64,000 nt of DNA from Terriglobia bacterium (GTDB lineage: Bacteria > Acidobacteriota > Terriglobia > 20CM-2-55-15). Positions 1 to 9,370 of this stretch are shown here, one piece after another. The translations under genes were made by a program, and so were the position numbers. The notes under the pieces are model-generated. The model did not search any database. It was not told where the DNA came from and saw nothing but the letters and a program-made list of their open reading frames with translations. Location of the stretch: contig CBDAOY010000005.1 of NCBI GenBank assembly GCA_965198225.1, positions 608,001 through 672,000 on the forward strand, written 5' to 3'. Positions within the stretch are counted from its first letter, which is position 1. Each line of letters begins with the position of its first letter.

Positions 1-304
1 TCGGGATGAGAACCTGCCGAACCGCATGCGGCCGATAGGTCCCTTCCTTCAGGTCCCGCGCCAGTGCTCCCAGCCACCGGTCCACCCCGAACGCATCGAT
101 GTCCGCGACCGTCTCGCCGTCCACCCCGGCCGCGCCGCCGTTGCGTCGCACGGCCTGCCAGGCGACTGCGAGCACGTCGTCGCGCCACACCTTGTCGCTC
201 AGAGAGTAGAACCGGAAGCCCAGAGCTTCCTTCGCTTTCGCATGTAGCGCCGTCTGGAGTCGCTGAACTCTCTCCGAGGCTGTTAGGCTCTCGCCAGTCC
301 TCAT
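1..304 (-). CDS. ltrA: Group II intron reverse transcriptase/maturase, N-terminal part (runs off the window start)
   Basis: Manual minus-strand translation from ATG 304: MRTGESLTASERVQRLQTALHAKAKEALGFRFYSLSDKVWRDDVLAVAWQAVRRNGGAAGVDGETV...LKEGTYRPHAVRQVLIP. This carries RT0/RT1 motifs (AW..V..N.GA.GVDG; Y.P..VR.V.IP). The exact start is uncertain. Confidence 0.9.
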   Translation of the reverse strand, partial: MRTGESLTASERVQRLQTALHAKAKEALGFRFYSLSDKVWRDDVLAVAWQAVRRNGGAAGVDGETVADIDAFGVDRWLGALARDLKEGTYRPHAVRQVLIP

Positions 305-481
305 GTCCCTTCCTCCGTCATGCGCTGCTCTCGAACTGAGGTCCCTTCCCTCCACCGGCATTACCTGATGGGATGGACTCCTCCTTGATGACTGAGTCGG
401 CATCGTAGTGCCAAAGTCATTGTGAAGCCTCGCGATGGTGCGGGCTAAACACGAGGACGTGTAAACAAGAAGGAGTCCGAG

Positions 482-1516
482 ATGAAGAGTAAAACGATCG
501 CAGTGGATCTGGCAAAGAATGTTTTCGAGATTGGGATTTCCGACCGCCCCGGGCAGATGACGAAGACATACCGTTTAAGCCGGGGAAAGTTCTTGTCGTT
601 TTTTGCGAATCAGGAGCTGGCGACGGTCGTGATGGAAGCCTGCAGTGCCGCCCATCACTGGGGACGAGAGATCCAGAAACTGGGGCACACAGTGGTACTG
701 ATTTCACCGCAGTATGTCCGGCCCTACGTACCGAGGAGTAAGACGGATCGGGCGGATGTAAAAGGGTTGCTGGAGGCCCACCGGAATGCCGATATTCGGG
801 CGGTACCCATTAAGACGGTGGCGCAACAGCAACTCACCGCCCTGCACCGCATCCGGTCGACCTGGATGCGGACCCGGACGGCGCGCATCAACATGGTGCG
901 GGGGCTGCTGGGAGAGTTTGGGCTCGTGCTGCCGACGGGAGCCCGGCGGCTGGTGCCCGGAGTCATGGGGTTGATCGAAGATGCGGATGTTGAGATCCCC
1001 ATGACCGTACGCGTCATGTTCTCGGAAGTGTGCACCGAAATCCGCGAGCTGGAGGCACGCATTCAATCGGTGGAGCGGGAGTTGGAAGCCCTGGCCCGTC
1101 AGATGCCCGAGGTGGCCCGTCTGCGCTCGATCCCTGGAATCGGGCTGTTGACTTCCACGGCGATGGTAGGTTTTGTCGGTGACCCCCGACGGTTTCGATC
1201 CTGTCGCCACTTTGCCAGTTATCTGGGACTCACCCCGCGTGAGCGTTCGAGCGGAAACCGGCGTCGGCTGGGAGCGATCAGCAAACAAGGCAACGTCTAC
1301 CTGCGGATGCTGCTCATACACGGTGGCCGCACTCTGCTATGGAGTGCGCATCGAAAAGGGGCGCAACCTTCGGCTCTGCAGAAATGGGGTCTCCGTCTCC
1401 ACACACTCCGCGGGCACAACACGGCCACGGTTGCTTTAGCCAACAAACTGGCCCGCACGGTTTGGGCCGTCTGGACACAGGACACGGCGTACGAGGCTGA
1501 CCGACGGGCGGCCTGA
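482..1516 (+). CDS. IS110/IS1111 family transposase (DEDD recombinase)
   Basis: Motifs IAVDLAK, VMEAC, KTDRAD, SIPGIG, GLTP..SSG, ALANKLAR. Confidence 0.96.
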   Translation: MKSKTIAVDLAKNVFEIGISDRPGQMTKTYRLSRGKFLSFFANQELATVVMEACSAAHHWGREIQKLGHTVVLISPQYVRPYVPRSKTDRADVKGLLEAHRNADIRAVPIKTVAQQQLTALHRIRSTWMRTRTARINMVRGLLGEFGLVLPTGARRLVPGVMGLIEDADVEIPMTVRVMFSEVCTEIRELEARIQSVERELEALARQMPEVARLRSIPGIGLLTSTAMVGFVGDPRRFRSCRHFASYLGLTPRERSSGNRRRLGAISKQGNVYLRMLLIHGGRTLLWSAHRKGAQPSALQKWGLRLHTLRGHNTATVALANKLARTVWAVWTQDTAYEADRRAA

Positions 1517-1546
1517 CACCATGACTGTAGGAACATCCTTTCAGTA

Positions 1547-1738
1547 GACTGCGACGACGTTCGAGTTGATGACGTACCGGTCAGACCGGCGCGGGGAAAC
1601 GCCGGAGAAGCCGTGGCCCCTGGAGGCCGTTTACCCGGTTGGCACCCCGCGCGCGAATTTCATCATGGCCCGGAACTCAAACGTTCCATTCGAGAGGCCG
1701 AAGATACGGATGCAGTCGATCTGTCACTCAACTCGAAA
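1547..1738 (+). ncRNA. Putative bridge/seek RNA of the IS1111 element
   Basis: Structured region downstream of the transposase (GACTGC/GCAGTC, TTCGAGTTGA/TCAACTCGAA, GCGCGGGG/CCCCGCGC and two GGCC/GGCC stems). Its internal loops match the target and donor junctions. Boundaries are approximate. Confidence 0.75.
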
Positions 1739-2420
1739 ATCAAATATCAGGATGCTGAAAAGAATCTTCGGGAAAAGGATATGGGACAGCTGCGCCTACT
1801 TGACAGGAGGAGTCCAGATACGGCTTTCTTGGTACTGCGGACCTCTCCGCCACCCTGTCGGCCCAACCTGACCCTCGCGGGCTGTCGGTTGGCGCGTGCC
1901 ACGCCACCGGCAGGGCTTCCCGTGTTGCGTCCAATCCCCTCTTCCATACATGCCACCGCCCAATACCCCGGCGGAACCAGTCGGTGCTCGCGTCGCTCGC
2001 TTCCCGACCGCTGGCAGCCTTCCCCGTTTCAACGGCGGGTCGGCTTCCGCATTGTGCGTTTCGAGGCCTGCTCGGCGTTTACTCGCGTTGTGGCCTGTGT
2101 GGTCGCTGAGCCGCCCGAGGCGGCCCTTTGTCATCGGAGTGCTTCAGACGATGTTGTTACCTCCACCATCCGCTCCGATTGCTACCGACTGGAGCGACAG
2201 TTGCCGGGCGGGATTCGCACCCGCTGAGGATTGGCGCCTTCTCACGGCGCACGTTGAAATAAGACATAAGGACCCTCGTCGAGCAATACTGCGCTCGGGC
2301 CCGGCGGCGCAATCTACATCCCTGATCTACATACCCTGCCAATGCAAGGCACGCGCTCCGATGCACCGGCTCGGAGCCGCGCCATCCTGTACGTCGCCGA
2401 GCAGGGATGCACGTGGCGGG

Positions 2421-3974
2421 TTAACGGACCCTGCCCGCCGTGCTCGCGCGCAGGCCCTTCCAGGTGCTGTAGCACATGGCGACCAGCACCAGCGCGAAGG
2501 GGAGGCTGGCGGCGAGGGTGGCCGCCTGCGCGGCTACGAGGCCGCCGCCGAGCAGCAGCGCGATGGCGATCAGCCCTTCGAAGACGCACCAGAACACGCG
2601 CTGGGCAACCGGCGCATCCAGCTTGCCGCCGGCGGTGATGGTGTCGATGACCAGTGATCCGGAGTCGGAGGAGGTGACAAAGAACACCACCACCAGCACG
2701 AGGCCGATGAACGAGGTGACCGTAGCAAGTGGCAGCGTCTCCAGCAGCGCGAACAGGGCGATCTCCGGCTGTTGCGCCTGCACCGCCGCGATCACGGCGG
2801 GATGGCCGCGCTCGACGTACTGCGACACCGCGGTCCCGCCGAAGGCATTCATCCAGATCGTAGCAGTCAGCGTCGGGATGACCAGCATGCAGGCGATCAG
2901 TTCGCGCACCGTCCGGCCACGCGAAACCCGGGCGATGAACAGGCCGACGAAGGGGGACCACGAGAGCCACCAGGCCCAGTAGAAGGTCGTCCAGCCGTGC
3001 ATGAAGTCGAGATCCTCTCGGCCCACCCAGTTGCTGAGCGGTACGATCGATGCCAGATACTGGCCGAGGCTGGTCACAACGCCGGTGGCGATGACGCGCG
3101 TCGGCCCGACCGTCAGCACGAACGCCAGCAGTAGCAGGGCGAGCAGCAGGTTGGCCTCGCTCAGCCGCTTGACCCCCCTCTCCATCCCGCTGACGACCGA
3201 CGCCAGCGCCATGCCGGTGATGCCGACGATCAGCAGCACCTGGGTGGTGTCGGTCGCCGGCGCGCCCCACAGGCGGGCCAGCCCCGCCGCCAACTGCTCG
3301 GCGCCCAGGCCGAGCGATGTGGCCAGTCCAAAGAGCGTGGCAAAGACGGCGAGGATGTCGATGCCGTGGCCGAACCGGCCCCACACCGCCTCCCCCATGA
3401 GCGGATAGAACGCCGACCGCAACGCCAGCGGCAGGCCGAGGTTGTACGAAGCGAAGGCGATCGCCACCGCCACCACCGCGTACATGGCCCATCCATGGAT
3501 TCCCCAGTGGTAGATGGCGCTGGCCATGCCGAGGCGCGCCGCCGCCGGGTCGCCCGCCGCGAGACCGAGCGGCGGGTGCAGGAAATGCTCCACCGGTTCC
3601 GACACCCCGAAGAACATCAGGCCGATGCCCGTCCCGGCGGCGAACAGCATGGCGAACCAAGCCGATCTGGAATAGTCCGGCCGGGCATCTGCGCCGCCCA
3701 GGCGCACGCGGCCGACCGGCGTCACCAGCAATAGCAGGCAGAAGAGCACGAAGAGGGTGGCCACGCCCATCAACACCCAGTCGAAGGTCGACATGAGCCA
3801 CGCGCGCAACGCCCCGAAGGCGACCGCCGCCCCGGTCTGGAACGCCAGCACCCCGGCGACGAATGCGATGATGGTAAGGCTGGAGACGACGAAAACCGGA
3901 TTATGGATGTCGAGGCCGAGGAACTGGACGTTGTCCTGACCCGGCTTGTAGTCGATCTTCGAGATCTCAGCCAT
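2421..3974 (-). CDS. BCCT family (betaine/carnitine/choline) transporter
   Basis: WFAMLFAAGTGIGLMFFG, HWGIHGW, WTTFYWAWWLSWSPFVGLFIARVSRGRT, FFVTSSDSG. Confidence 0.95.
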   Translation of the reverse strand: MAEISKIDYKPGQDNVQFLGLDIHNPVFVVSSLTIIAFVAGVLAFQTGAAVAFGALRAWLMSTFDWVLMGVATLFVLFCLLLLVTPVGRVRLGGADARPDYSRSAWFAMLFAAGTGIGLMFFGVSEPVEHFLHPPLGLAAGDPAAARLGMASAIYHWGIHGWAMYAVVAVAIAFASYNLGLPLALRSAFYPLMGEAVWGRFGHGIDILAVFATLFGLATSLGLGAEQLAAGLARLWGAPATDTTQVLLIVGITGMALASVVSGMERGVKRLSEANLLLALLLLAFVLTVGPTRVIATGVVTSLGQYLASIVPLSNWVGREDLDFMHGWTTFYWAWWLSWSPFVGLFIARVSRGRTVRELIACMLVIPTLTATIWMNAFGGTAVSQYVERGHPAVIAAVQAQQPEIALFALLETLPLATVTSFIGLVLVVVFFVTSSDSGSLVIDTITAGGKLDAPVAQRVFWCVFEGLIAIALLLGGGLVAAQAATLAASLPFALVLVAMCYSTWKGLRASTAGRVR

Positions 3975-8266: not shown

Positions 8267-9370
8267 GACCTTGTTGCATGGATCATCCCGAAGGATGTCT
8301 TATCATTGTGTTTTTCAACACCGGGGATAACTTAGATGCCACATAAGTTCAACGCAGCCCGACGGCACAAGTTTGATAAGGCGCAGTACCGGGTGATCAA
8401 CTGGGCGGAATATAACGAGAGCCTGCGCCAGCGGGGTGATCTGACGATTTGGGTCAGTGATGAGGCTCAAAGTGTGTGGCGCGCGCCGCGCCGCACGTCA
8501 CGGGGTGGCCAGCGGAGATACTCGGATCTGGCGATCGAGACATGCCTGACGCTGCGCACGGCGTATCGGCTTGGGTTGCGACAAACGCAGGGGCTGATGG
8601 GTTCCATCGGCACGCTCATGGGGCTGGATATACGGGTGCCGGACTTCTCCACACTGTCGCGTCGCGCAAACGGCTTGAGCATCGCGCAGGTGATGAGGCA
8701 AGCCGGGTCTGTGCCTGTCCATCTGGTGGTGGACAGTACCGGCCTCAAGATCTTCGGCGAAGGGGAATGGCTCGCGCAGAAACATAAAACCAGGGGAATA
8801 CGCCGCCGCTGGCGCAAACTCCACCTCGGACTGGACCTCCATAGCGGTGCGATTGTTTGCGCCAATCTGACTCACGATGACGTTGGAGACAGCACCGCCT
8901 TGCCCGGGCTCCTGGATCAACTCGATGCCCCTGTCACGGGCTTTCTGGCGGACGGCGCCTATGATGGAGCGTCCACACGGGATCTGCTGAGGGAACGGTA
9001 TGGGGAGACCCTGGATGTGGTTATACCGCCGCCAAAGAACGCAGTGATCCGACCGCAATCGGCGCGGGATCCAACCGTTCGGGATCGCCATATTGCCCAG
9101 ATCCGCAGCAACGGCCGCATGGCCTGGCAAGTGGCCACAGGGTACAACCAGCGCAGCCGGATAGAAACGCAGATCGGCCGGTGGAAGAGCGTCATCGGCC
9201 CCAAGCTCAAATCTCGCAGCTTCTCCAGGCAAATCACGGAGATCCAGGTCGGCCAGAAAGTCCTGAACACAATGACCGCACTCGGACGGCCTGTGTTCGA
9301 ACGTATCGCCTGACGCTACCGCTTTGGAAAGGGCGAATTCCATCTCCGCCCCGATCCATGCAACAACGCT
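8267..9370 (+). mobile_element. IS5 family (IS903-like) insertion sequence
   Basis: IRs GACCTTGTTGCATGGATC / GATCCATGCAACAACGCT; the flanks are not duplicated. Confidence 0.88.
8336..9313 (+). CDS. IS5 family (IS903 group) transposase
   Basis: NWAEYNESLRQRG, YSDLAIE, VDSTGLK, WRKLH, ADGAYD, YNQRSRIET. Confidence 0.95.
   Translation: MPHKFNAARRHKFDKAQYRVINWAEYNESLRQRGDLTIWVSDEAQSVWRAPRRTSRGGQRRYSDLAIETCLTLRTAYRLGLRQTQGLMGSIGTLMGLDIRVPDFSTLSRRANGLSIAQVMRQAGSVPVHLVVDSTGLKIFGEGEWLAQKHKTRGIRRRWRKLHLGLDLHSGAIVCANLTHDDVGDSTALPGLLDQLDAPVTGFLADGAYDGASTRDLLRERYGETLDVVIPPPKNAVIRPQSARDPTVRDRHIAQIRSNGRMAWQVATGYNQRSRIETQIGRWKSVIGPKLKSRSFSRQITEIQVGQKVLNTMTALGRPVFERIA

Follow-up and report, generated by a model that had tools for sequence, protein, structure and literature searches.

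An IS1111-family insertion sequence within a group II intron of a Terriglobia bacterium, its candidate RNA guides and its target hairpin

The insertion sequence and its intron host

The DNA considered here is a stretch of 64,000 nucleotides from a Terriglobia bacterium (assembly GCA_965198225.1, contig CBDAOY010000005.1, positions 608,001 to 672,000), which is called the window below and belongs to a genome of 6.4 Mb in 9 contigs (G000). Close to the start of the window, a group II intron on the minus strand is interrupted by an insertion sequence (IS) of the IS1111 family. The original prediction, made from the letters of the window, held that the non-coding RNA of this IS is programmed against intron domain III. 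Overall, the best explanation of the locus is probably that of an RNA-guided IS1111 element for which a hairpin of the intron is the cognate site. This explanation is carried by the anatomy of the element, its exact junctions, a conserved RNA scaffold, the covariation of guides and flanks, and the conservation and structure of the target. The features at the locus are as follows.

366-1820, plus strand: IS1111-family insertion sequence, 1455 bp (four 100% identical genome copies with exact ends; empty sites)
366-385, plus strand: left end, with extension TGATGGGA (366-373) and left subterminal inverted repeat TGGACTCCTCCT (374-385), kept in relatives
482-1516, plus strand: transposase/recombinase, 344 aa, intact, single open reading frame (ORF) (Pfam domains, ORF list)
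1517-1820, plus strand: 3' non-coding region, predicted to encode a seek/bridge-type RNA (conserved scaffold, compensatory changes, 23 relatives)
1800-1820, plus strand: right end, with a -35-like TTGACA (1800-1805), right subterminal repeat AGGAGGAGTCCA (1805-1816) and extension GATA (1817-1820), kept in relatives
1821-2252, minus strand: upstream intron part, running from the 5' end (GUGCG at 2252) through domain I and a branched domain II-like region to the 5' half of the target hairpin (1845-1821) (Rfam, fold)
1-365, minus strand: downstream intron part, comprising the domain III-like hairpin's 3' half (365-338) and the beginning of the reverse transcriptase (RT) ORF (ATG 304-302), which exits the window (RVT_1)

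The 344-aa transposase contains the domains DEDD_Tnp_IS110 (PF01548; 2.4e-08, 34.3 bits, cut-off 29) and Transposase_20 (PF02371; 5.9e-24, 84.7 bits, cut-off 21.3), and its translation includes GLTPRERSSG, which corresponds to the GL-P----S(t)G motif of the IS1111 group. The subterminal inverted repeats are 12 bp long, against about 11-13 bp in the IS1111 group, TGGACTCCTCCT at 374-385 having its complement at 1805-1816. Counting perfect repeat pairs only, the terminal extensions measure 8 bases on the left and 4 on the right, or 7 and 3, the values of the IS1111 group, in the register of relatives with one extra outer repeat pair (e.g., L132 and L025); the empty sites define where the ends lie. 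The transposase gene is followed by 304 nt of non-coding DNA and preceded by 116 nt. By every family character that can be tested at the level of sequence, the element is an intact IS1111-family insertion sequence, and the coordinates given in the original prediction were all confirmed. G000 holds four copies identical over all 1455 bases, one copy of 72% identity and short fragments, while a near-identical assembly (L074) holds one identical copy. The IS has probably been active recently.

The IS junctions in the window read ...GGCATTACC|TGATGGG... on the left and ...CCAGATA|CGGCTTTC... on the right. These flanks are common to two of the four IS copies, that of the window and that at C5:744857, both of which are intronic. 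Across the insertion point, five uninterrupted intron copies of the same genome read GGCATTACCCGGCTT[T/C]C. Because they show the joined site, the insertion is exact and occurred without target duplication, as had been claimed. The remaining two IS copies lie inside a 1.1-kb IS5-like element (DDE_Tnp_1) at imperfect sites, with the flanks CTGCATTACC|CGGCTCC and CGCCTTACC|CGGGCTCC. TTACC|CGG is common to the four occupied sites; the IS orientation is the same in each, and the empty sites are exact.

A solo right-end remnant of an IS1111-like element, 55 nt long, was also found in G000 (C6:561411-561465) beside an IS21-like element. Its flank, CCGGGTAAT, is the intron-hairpin motif in opposite orientation, and its location is not intronic.

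The host intron was recognized by RF02003 (domain I; 82.8 bits, cut-off 49, over 2083-2226) and RF02005 (38.1 bits over 1965-2067), and RF00029 (domain V/VI) matches an uninterrupted copy (45.2 bits, cut-off 40). Its encoded reverse transcriptase (RVT_1, 8.8e-33) starts at 304, 61 nt past the insertion point. About seven intron copies with the target site are present in G000, in addition to fragments, and the copies are 99.7-99.9% alike. The RT reading frame is intact in both IS-occupied copies. Relatives of the intron protein are found in 18 other genomes among the 400 sampled from the phylum.

In 17 distinct intron sequences, from G000 and other genomes, 70 bases around the insertion site align gap-free: they form a hairpin in which a basal stem of 7 pairs is followed by an internal loop with conserved purine-rich strands and by a 5-pair apical stem with a GUAAYG-type loop. 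Across the 17 sequences 97.5% of the hairpin cells are paired, compared with 39-58% in slid controls, and six pairs are changed on both sides, compared with 2.0 +/- 1.1 in shuffles, none of which reaches this value (0/500). The hairpin is located after a branched domain II-like fold and directly ahead of the ORF-bearing domain. The IS insertion point falls between pairs four and five of the apical stem on its 5' strand, and the outer four apical-stem pairs could still close across the insert; the block to splicing that had been proposed is weaker than claimed. The predicted domain III target thus stands as a conserved, covarying hairpin at that position; the name domain III, given from position and form rather than from a curated domain III model, is tentative.

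Three further observations concern the intron. The otherwise complete uninterrupted reference copy (L010, C6:5899-7999) has a 1-base deletion that shifts the RT frame before the maturase motif. Domain VI of the outer intron houses a second group II intron at C5:605594-606912 and C6:839762-843511, a twintron-like arrangement; the inner intron is ORF-less in the window's copy, where it lies just outside the window, upstream, and it carries a 448-aa RT ORF in the C6 copy. In metatranscriptome contigs of the public run X15, the summed depth over the intron 5' part (1841-2240) is hundreds of times that over the IS (401-1760), which is a mere hint of abundant intron RNA because introns of many organisms may contribute.

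The non-coding region and its guide segments

The non-coding region downstream of the transposase gene was compared among relatives. The following features are distinguished in it.

1567-1572, plus strand: UGAUGA arm resembling the IS left end, with predicted pairing to 1660-1665 (RNAalifold)
1590-1651, plus strand: target-loop domain, with basal stem 1590-1596/1645-1651, inner stem 1601-1603/1641-1643 and apical stem 1614-1618/1625-1629 (alignment covariation)
1607-1613, plus strand: 5' target guide GAAGCCG, complement of the right flank's top strand, CGGCTT(T/C); may span 10 nt, 1604-1613
1631-1638, plus strand: 3' target guide TTACCCGG, equal to the last 5 left-flank bases and the first 3 right-flank bases; it would pair with the bottom strand
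1659-1665, plus strand: TTCATCA, complementing the IS left end TGATGGG with two wobbles; the 1567-1572 arm is an alternative partner
1667-1699, plus strand: donor-loop apical stems, GGCC/GGCC 1667-1670/1696-1699 and inner hairpin 1672-1676/1683-1687
1702-1709, plus strand: right-end guide AGATACGG, equal to the IS right end AGATA and the CGG of the right flank

Relatives were taken from a phylum sample of 400 genomes plus G000, in which a transposase match at E <= 1e-60 occurs in 25 of the 401 genomes, and from metagenomes. Among 27 distinct non-coding segments found, those of L040 and L075 (truncated), L037 and L038 (36% relatives) and L030 (same letters as L028) were left out; the G000 row L014 was entered as the window's identical stretch and the 72% copy was added, giving a scaffold alignment of 23 rows. 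The structure was drawn manually: it has a small hairpin, a basal stem of 7 pairs, an inner stem of 3 pairs, an apical stem separating the two target segments, and, separating the two end segments, an invariant GGCC/GGCC stem with an inner hairpin. Its cells are paired in 86.6% of cases across the 23 relatives, compared with 29-48% in slid versions, and 16 pairs show compensatory changes, compared with 6.7 +/- 1.7 in shuffles (0/500 reach this number). Helices 2, 4 and 5 of the target-loop domain reach 89.9%, 95.7% and 88.7% pairing, and changes on both sides occur in 6, 1 and 3 of their pairs, respectively. In the donor loop, helix 6 is 98.9% paired and almost invariant, and helix 7 is paired in 73% of cells and has 3 pairs with changes on both sides. 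Folded as a single sequence, 1517-1835 does no better than shuffles (z = -1.41), so the support for RNA structure comes from the alignment alone. An Rfam search of window positions 1-3000 at E <= 1 returned only the intron domain I models and none for the IS non-coding RNA.

The variable stretches of this alignment are precisely the segments that the original prediction had named as guides. The GGCC/GGCC stems described there are present at 1615-1618/1625-1628 and 1667-1670/1696-1699, and GAAGCCG and TTACCCGG occur where they were placed and match the insertion site. Folding of the region 1517-1820, which had been proposed as a check, yields in comparison with relatives a covarying scaffold with a guide placement that fits the IS1111 seekRNA layout. 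In this layout (PMC11187229), the top-strand complement stands 5' of the bottom-strand match and the two overlap in the target. The same order is found here, and the target guides overlap in the target at CGG.

Each relative carries guides that correspond to its own insertion site. Ahead of the TTGGC strand stand 8 bases that repeat the last 5 of the own left flank followed by CG(G/A), and the bases before the TGGCC strand complement the own right flank. For the flank tests, the subterminal repeat was used to define the ends, and rows were admitted only if the flank was usable and the guide unique (17 and 19). The 3' guide fits its own flank at 4.05/5 positions (n=19) and the flanks of other elements at 2.49, and the 5' guide fits its own flank at 6.88/9 (n=17) and those of other elements at 4.17; 0/5000 permutations reach either value, although these figures overstate independence because the relatives are kin. 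The predicted co-variation of both target guides with the flanks of homologs is therefore observed. The 72% copy in the same genome provides a direct example: all of its stems are kept, GTCAG replaces TTACC, and its left flank ends in GTCAG, a 5/5 fit.

That the complementarities arose by chance and the protein alone picks the target could be proposed, as the matches are individually short (5-8 bases). This is highly improbable in view of the guide-flank covariation, which 0/5000 permutations equal, and of the same layout having been demonstrated experimentally in other IS1111 members (PMC11187229).

In the 72% relative (C4:92181-93570; L005/L011), the ORF is intact and the guides are retargeted. 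At its right junction, ...GTCCAGAGGAAAC, three bases seem to be missing relative to its own guide image AGATACGG, and this relative is probably an immobilised copy.

In the second loop, the segment at 1702-1706 is identical to the IS right end, as predicted, and is actually longer, extending as AGATACGG (1702-1709) into the right flank. Across relatives it fits the own right end plus flank at 6.47/7 positions (n=19); ATATA segments accompany ATATA right ends, and GG accompanies a GG flank. The letters and position of TTCATCA at 1659-1665 and its complementarity to the left end also agree with the prediction, whereas its role as a left-end guide is not secure because UGAUGA at 1567-1572, within the RNA itself, also pairs with it. 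RNAalifold pairs alignment columns 12-17 with 119-124, which form the stem of this arm, with changes on both sides. The TTCATCA segment scores 6.05/7 against the left ends with wobbles (n=22) and 5.83/7 against the UGAUGR arm (n=23). A function as left-end guide is plausible, and the 1567-1572/1660-1665 pairing may be a structural or self-masking stem.

The intron as the address of the element

The target guides jointly specify TTACC|CGGCTTY. In G000 the 8-mer has 150 copies and the specified 12-mer has 8, of which five lie in empty introns, two in occupied introns and one, empty, in unique DNA. The intron is thus the source of 7/8 perfect sites, and 2/7 of these are occupied. Because its domain III-like apical stem supplies nearly all 12-mers, the intron is considered the cognate landing site. 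The guide G at 1607 forms a wobble with T at the occupied sites and a full pair with the ...CTTC variant, which is found in three empty copies and in most intron relatives. With the longer guide GGAGAAGCCG and TTACCCGG, a 15-base match, GGAGAAGCCGGGTAA, is obtained in five intron loci of two other genomes, neither of which has a transposase match at E <= 1e-60. These comparisons of sequences support the view that the guide fits the consensus of the intron lineage better than the copies occupied. We infer that the intron match reflects adaptation rather than opportunity.

The element also occupies another repeat, and the window contains an uninterrupted copy of it.

8268-9370, plus strand: uninterrupted IS5-like element, with an unoccupied near-cognate site CGCCTTGCC|CGGGCTCC, junction after 8904 (DDE_Tnp_1_5, DDE_Tnp_1)

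Five uninterrupted IS5-like copies, including this one, read CGCCTTGCC CGGGCTCC, which is one base off TTACC|CGG. The two IS-bearing IS5-like copies are diverged and lie elsewhere in G000. All four occupied sites retain the 8-base bottom-strand match, and the top-strand match differs among them.

The IS5-like host copy at C5:838646 has four differences from its family consensus within 14 bases of the insertion, two of which improve guide pairing. Carry-over of these differences from the intron site was considered and rejected: two improve pairing, one is unlike the intron, and this IS5-like copy is ~3% diverged overall. They may reflect ascertainment, which is not proven.

Several observations weigh against the intron hairpin as the cognate site of an RNA-guided element. 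Five of the seven intron sites and the sole perfect non-intron site are empty. Two of the four IS copies in G000, together with the only identical copy elsewhere (L074), lie in the IS5-like transposase gene, so that the element is not confined to the intron. The site with the right flank CGGGCTCC fits the 5' guide at only 3/7 positions in register. Relatives inside introns elsewhere were not found in the phylum sample, genome contigs or metagenomes, nor were same-guide relatives in any other genome or metagenome scanned. As to the second loop, the first two positions of TTCATCA follow the arm and not the left end in several relatives. The rule of an identical core dinucleotide in donor and target, known from IS621 (PMC11208160), fails here because the IS begins with TG (366-367) and the right flank with CG (1821-1822). 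Finally, the production and binding of the RNA and the chemistry of exchange are steps that we infer.

The TG/CG difference is found in nearly all relatives, the exceptions being L017, whose flank is TG, and L086, whose IS starts with CG. As a speculation, this pattern would be compatible with a staggered exchange of two bases and later resolution of the resulting mismatch. The difference bears on where IS1111 strands exchange, a point left open in the literature consulted.

The search for relatives covered three samples. In the phylum sample, the closest transposase outside G000 is 65% identical. Among 7 loci from the genome-contig scan, only L074 (100%) and L075 (77%, truncated and without ends) are close, and the metagenome scan gave 36 loci, with 61% identity for the best transposase. 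Exact matches to the intron-IS junction pattern occur in G000 only, and the six two-mismatch matches elsewhere equal the 6 in a reversed control. When 30 intron loci were scanned with both transposases (that of the window's IS and that of the second element described below), intron-internal matches were found only at two G000 loci; L064 has a 77-aa transposase fragment ~800 nt past the end of the intron. The expectation that flanks of homologs fall in group II intron domain III was accordingly not borne out, with none beyond this genome among the relatives tabulated.

The same RNA-guided mechanism might operate with the intron being incidental, that is, a short motif that happens to lie in a multicopy intron, combined with survivorship in dispensable DNA. 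The copies in the IS5-like element, which are half of the total and at imperfect sites, agree with this, as do the empty state of the single perfect non-intron site in unique DNA and the lack of intron-borne relatives in the scans; moreover, chance alone would supply ~1.5 copies of a 12-mer having one two-fold position in 6.4 Mb. Part of the pattern can be put down to survivorship in dispensable DNA. As a full account this reading is nevertheless considered unlikely, because 7/8 perfect sites are intronic, the guide fits the lineage consensus and the 15-base variant of other genomes better than the occupied copies, and a second, unrelated IS1111 element targets the same intron in 3/3 copies. 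For the claim that the element is guided to the ribozyme of another mobile element, the match between guide and site stands, and specialisation on the intron is weaker than had been claimed.

This second IS1111-type element is 1509 bp long, has a transposase 37% identical to that of the first, and interrupts intron domain I within the RF02005 stretch. Two full copies and one truncated copy are present in G000 (C5:746556-748064, C4:145763-147271 and C5:826165-827312), all three at one intron site with CGA on both sides. In the window's intron this site, at about 2056-2070, is empty. Its guides follow the same layout: AGGCCTCG complements the right flank, CGTTTCGA repeats the left flank followed by CGA, and CACATACGA the right end followed by CGA. 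In relatives of the second element (58-59%, one genome) the guides differ, and no intron context is evident. It can be tentatively suggested, with considerable doubt, that two unrelated IS1111 elements independently set their guides to conserved ribozyme segments of one intron lineage, domain I and the domain III hairpin, and track this lineage across hosts as a portable, multicopy and harmless landing pad. The 15/15 fit of the first element's guide to a domain III variant in introns of other genomes points this way. Such elements may even ride along during intron retrohoming, as the apical stem holding the insert could still close.

Another possibility is that both intron-borne copies descend from one insertion, followed by retrohoming, duplication or gene conversion of the loaded intron. 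The IS copies and their immediate flanks are identical, the intron copies are 99.7-99.9% alike, and an insert in the apical loop need not stop the ribozyme; ORFs are known in domain III of some fungal introns. The two occupied introns, however, differ at 3 positions, with each allele shared with an empty copy, and no variants are private to the pair; one carries the second IS in domain I and the other the nested intron in domain VI. Because of these differing positions and nested elements, the occupied introns are not simple duplicates. A single insertion is thus quite improbable, and two insertion events into the intron are more likely, though not proven.

Public sequencing runs also contain the locus. 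Half or more of the sampled words of the stretch are held by 16 of the 24 runs listed, and the stretch or part of it is held by 20 runs from 9 studies, including six RNA libraries. Contigs of four runs were compared with the locus. In run X2, the IS is present with 0 other letters in three contigs spanning 364-1823. The empty intron site is found in run contigs as a joint of 365 to 1821 in X15, with loose ends in X2 and X4. These contigs were considered as evidence of excision and rejected, as their simplest source is uninterrupted intron copies or relatives. A joint of the circle junction is absent from the contigs listed, which carries no weight because rare forms do not appear in contigs. 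Expression was likewise rejected as the reading of IS cover in RNA libraries, which is low and may be DNA carry-over.

Mechanism and relation to known RNA-guided elements

Under the explanation preferred here, in which the intron hairpin is the cognate site, the 3' non-coding region would yield a seek/bridge-type RNA on the conserved stem scaffold. In its target loop, GAAGCCG would be the partner of the top strand in the right half-site, and TTACCCGG would bind the bottom strand across the left half-site and three overlapping bases. The second loop would hold a copy of the IS right end followed by CG(G), together with a segment complementing the left end. From the experimental record of the family, the IS would excise as a circle with abutted ends, and a promoter at the circle junction would drive both gene and RNA; candidate elements, spaced by 18 nt, are TTGACA at 1800-1805 and TGGGAT in the left end. 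The DEDD recombinase carrying this RNA would then pair it with both target strands and exchange strands, and the circular IS would be joined to the target without duplication and in a single orientation. Insertions at imperfect sites would survive in another dispensable repeat, the IS5-like element.

The closest likeness is to the seekRNA-carrying IS1111 members ISEc11, ISPa11, ISKpn4 and ISPst6 (Siddiquee et al. 2024, PMC11187229). They share with the present element a DEDD transposase of ~340 aa, the motif, the repeats, the 3' non-coding region, insertion without duplication, and the order and overlap of the guides. Natural retargeting with stems kept, described there for ISEc11/ISXne4, is matched here by the 72% copy. 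The integron-borne relative L132, 43.6% identical, has the same scaffold and guide placement as judged by eye, and the nearest named or annotated relatives are <45% identical. Compared with the known seekRNA members in that source, the target differs: here it is a ribozyme hairpin of a group II intron, not a repetitive extragenic palindromic (REP) sequence, an attC site or a short linear site.

The bridge RNA of IS621 (Durrant et al. 2024, PMC11208160; Hiraizumi et al.; PMC13626964) follows the same two-loop logic of target versus IS ends with per-strand segments. The donor-loop segment of the present element runs into target sequence, which is reminiscent of the handshake guides of IS621. Of the two-loop scheme, the target loop and the right-end guide are supported here, while the left-end segment has a rival partner in the RNA. 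In IS621 the RNA lies 5' of the gene, in the left end (PMC11208160); here it lies 3' of the gene, the repeats are long, and the order of strand matches is reversed. Because the RNA is 3', the strand order is reversed and no core is shared, the element works like the IS621-type group and is not a member of it.

Group IIC-attC introns and the IS1111-attC group offer a further comparison, since both meet at the same repeated structures (PMC3001079). In that case the two target attC side by side, whereas here the IS targets the intron itself. In the literature consulted, which for the most part did not extend to subscription journals or supplementary target tables (PMC11187229; PMC11208160 Supplementary Table 5), no IS110/IS1111 element inside a group II intron is reported. 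What is new is the group II intron hairpin as a target class for a known kind of RNA-guided IS.

A target inside another mobile element has a precedent within the family. Partridge and Hall reportedly described in 2003 that IS4321 and IS5075, both IS1111 members, insert in the terminal repeats of Tn21-family transposons. The predicted targeting of another mobile element applies to the present IS, and its principle was already known from these two, so far as their reported account goes. There the target is the protein-binding repeat of a DNA transposon; here it is a conserved RNA-structure element of a retroelement, which is the host of two unrelated IS1111 elements.

For the IS1111 branch of RNA-guided recombinases, which is less studied, the locus provides a clean guide-target pair from nature. 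One genome supplies the internal controls, namely empty, perfect and imperfect sites together with a retargeted 72% relative, and the imperfect sites show mismatch tolerance in nature. The locus further shows that an RNA-guided transposon can take as its DNA address a conserved RNA-structure element belonging to a retroelement. If this is general, it would add an extra layer to the nesting of mobile elements and to the ways in which they find harmless sites.

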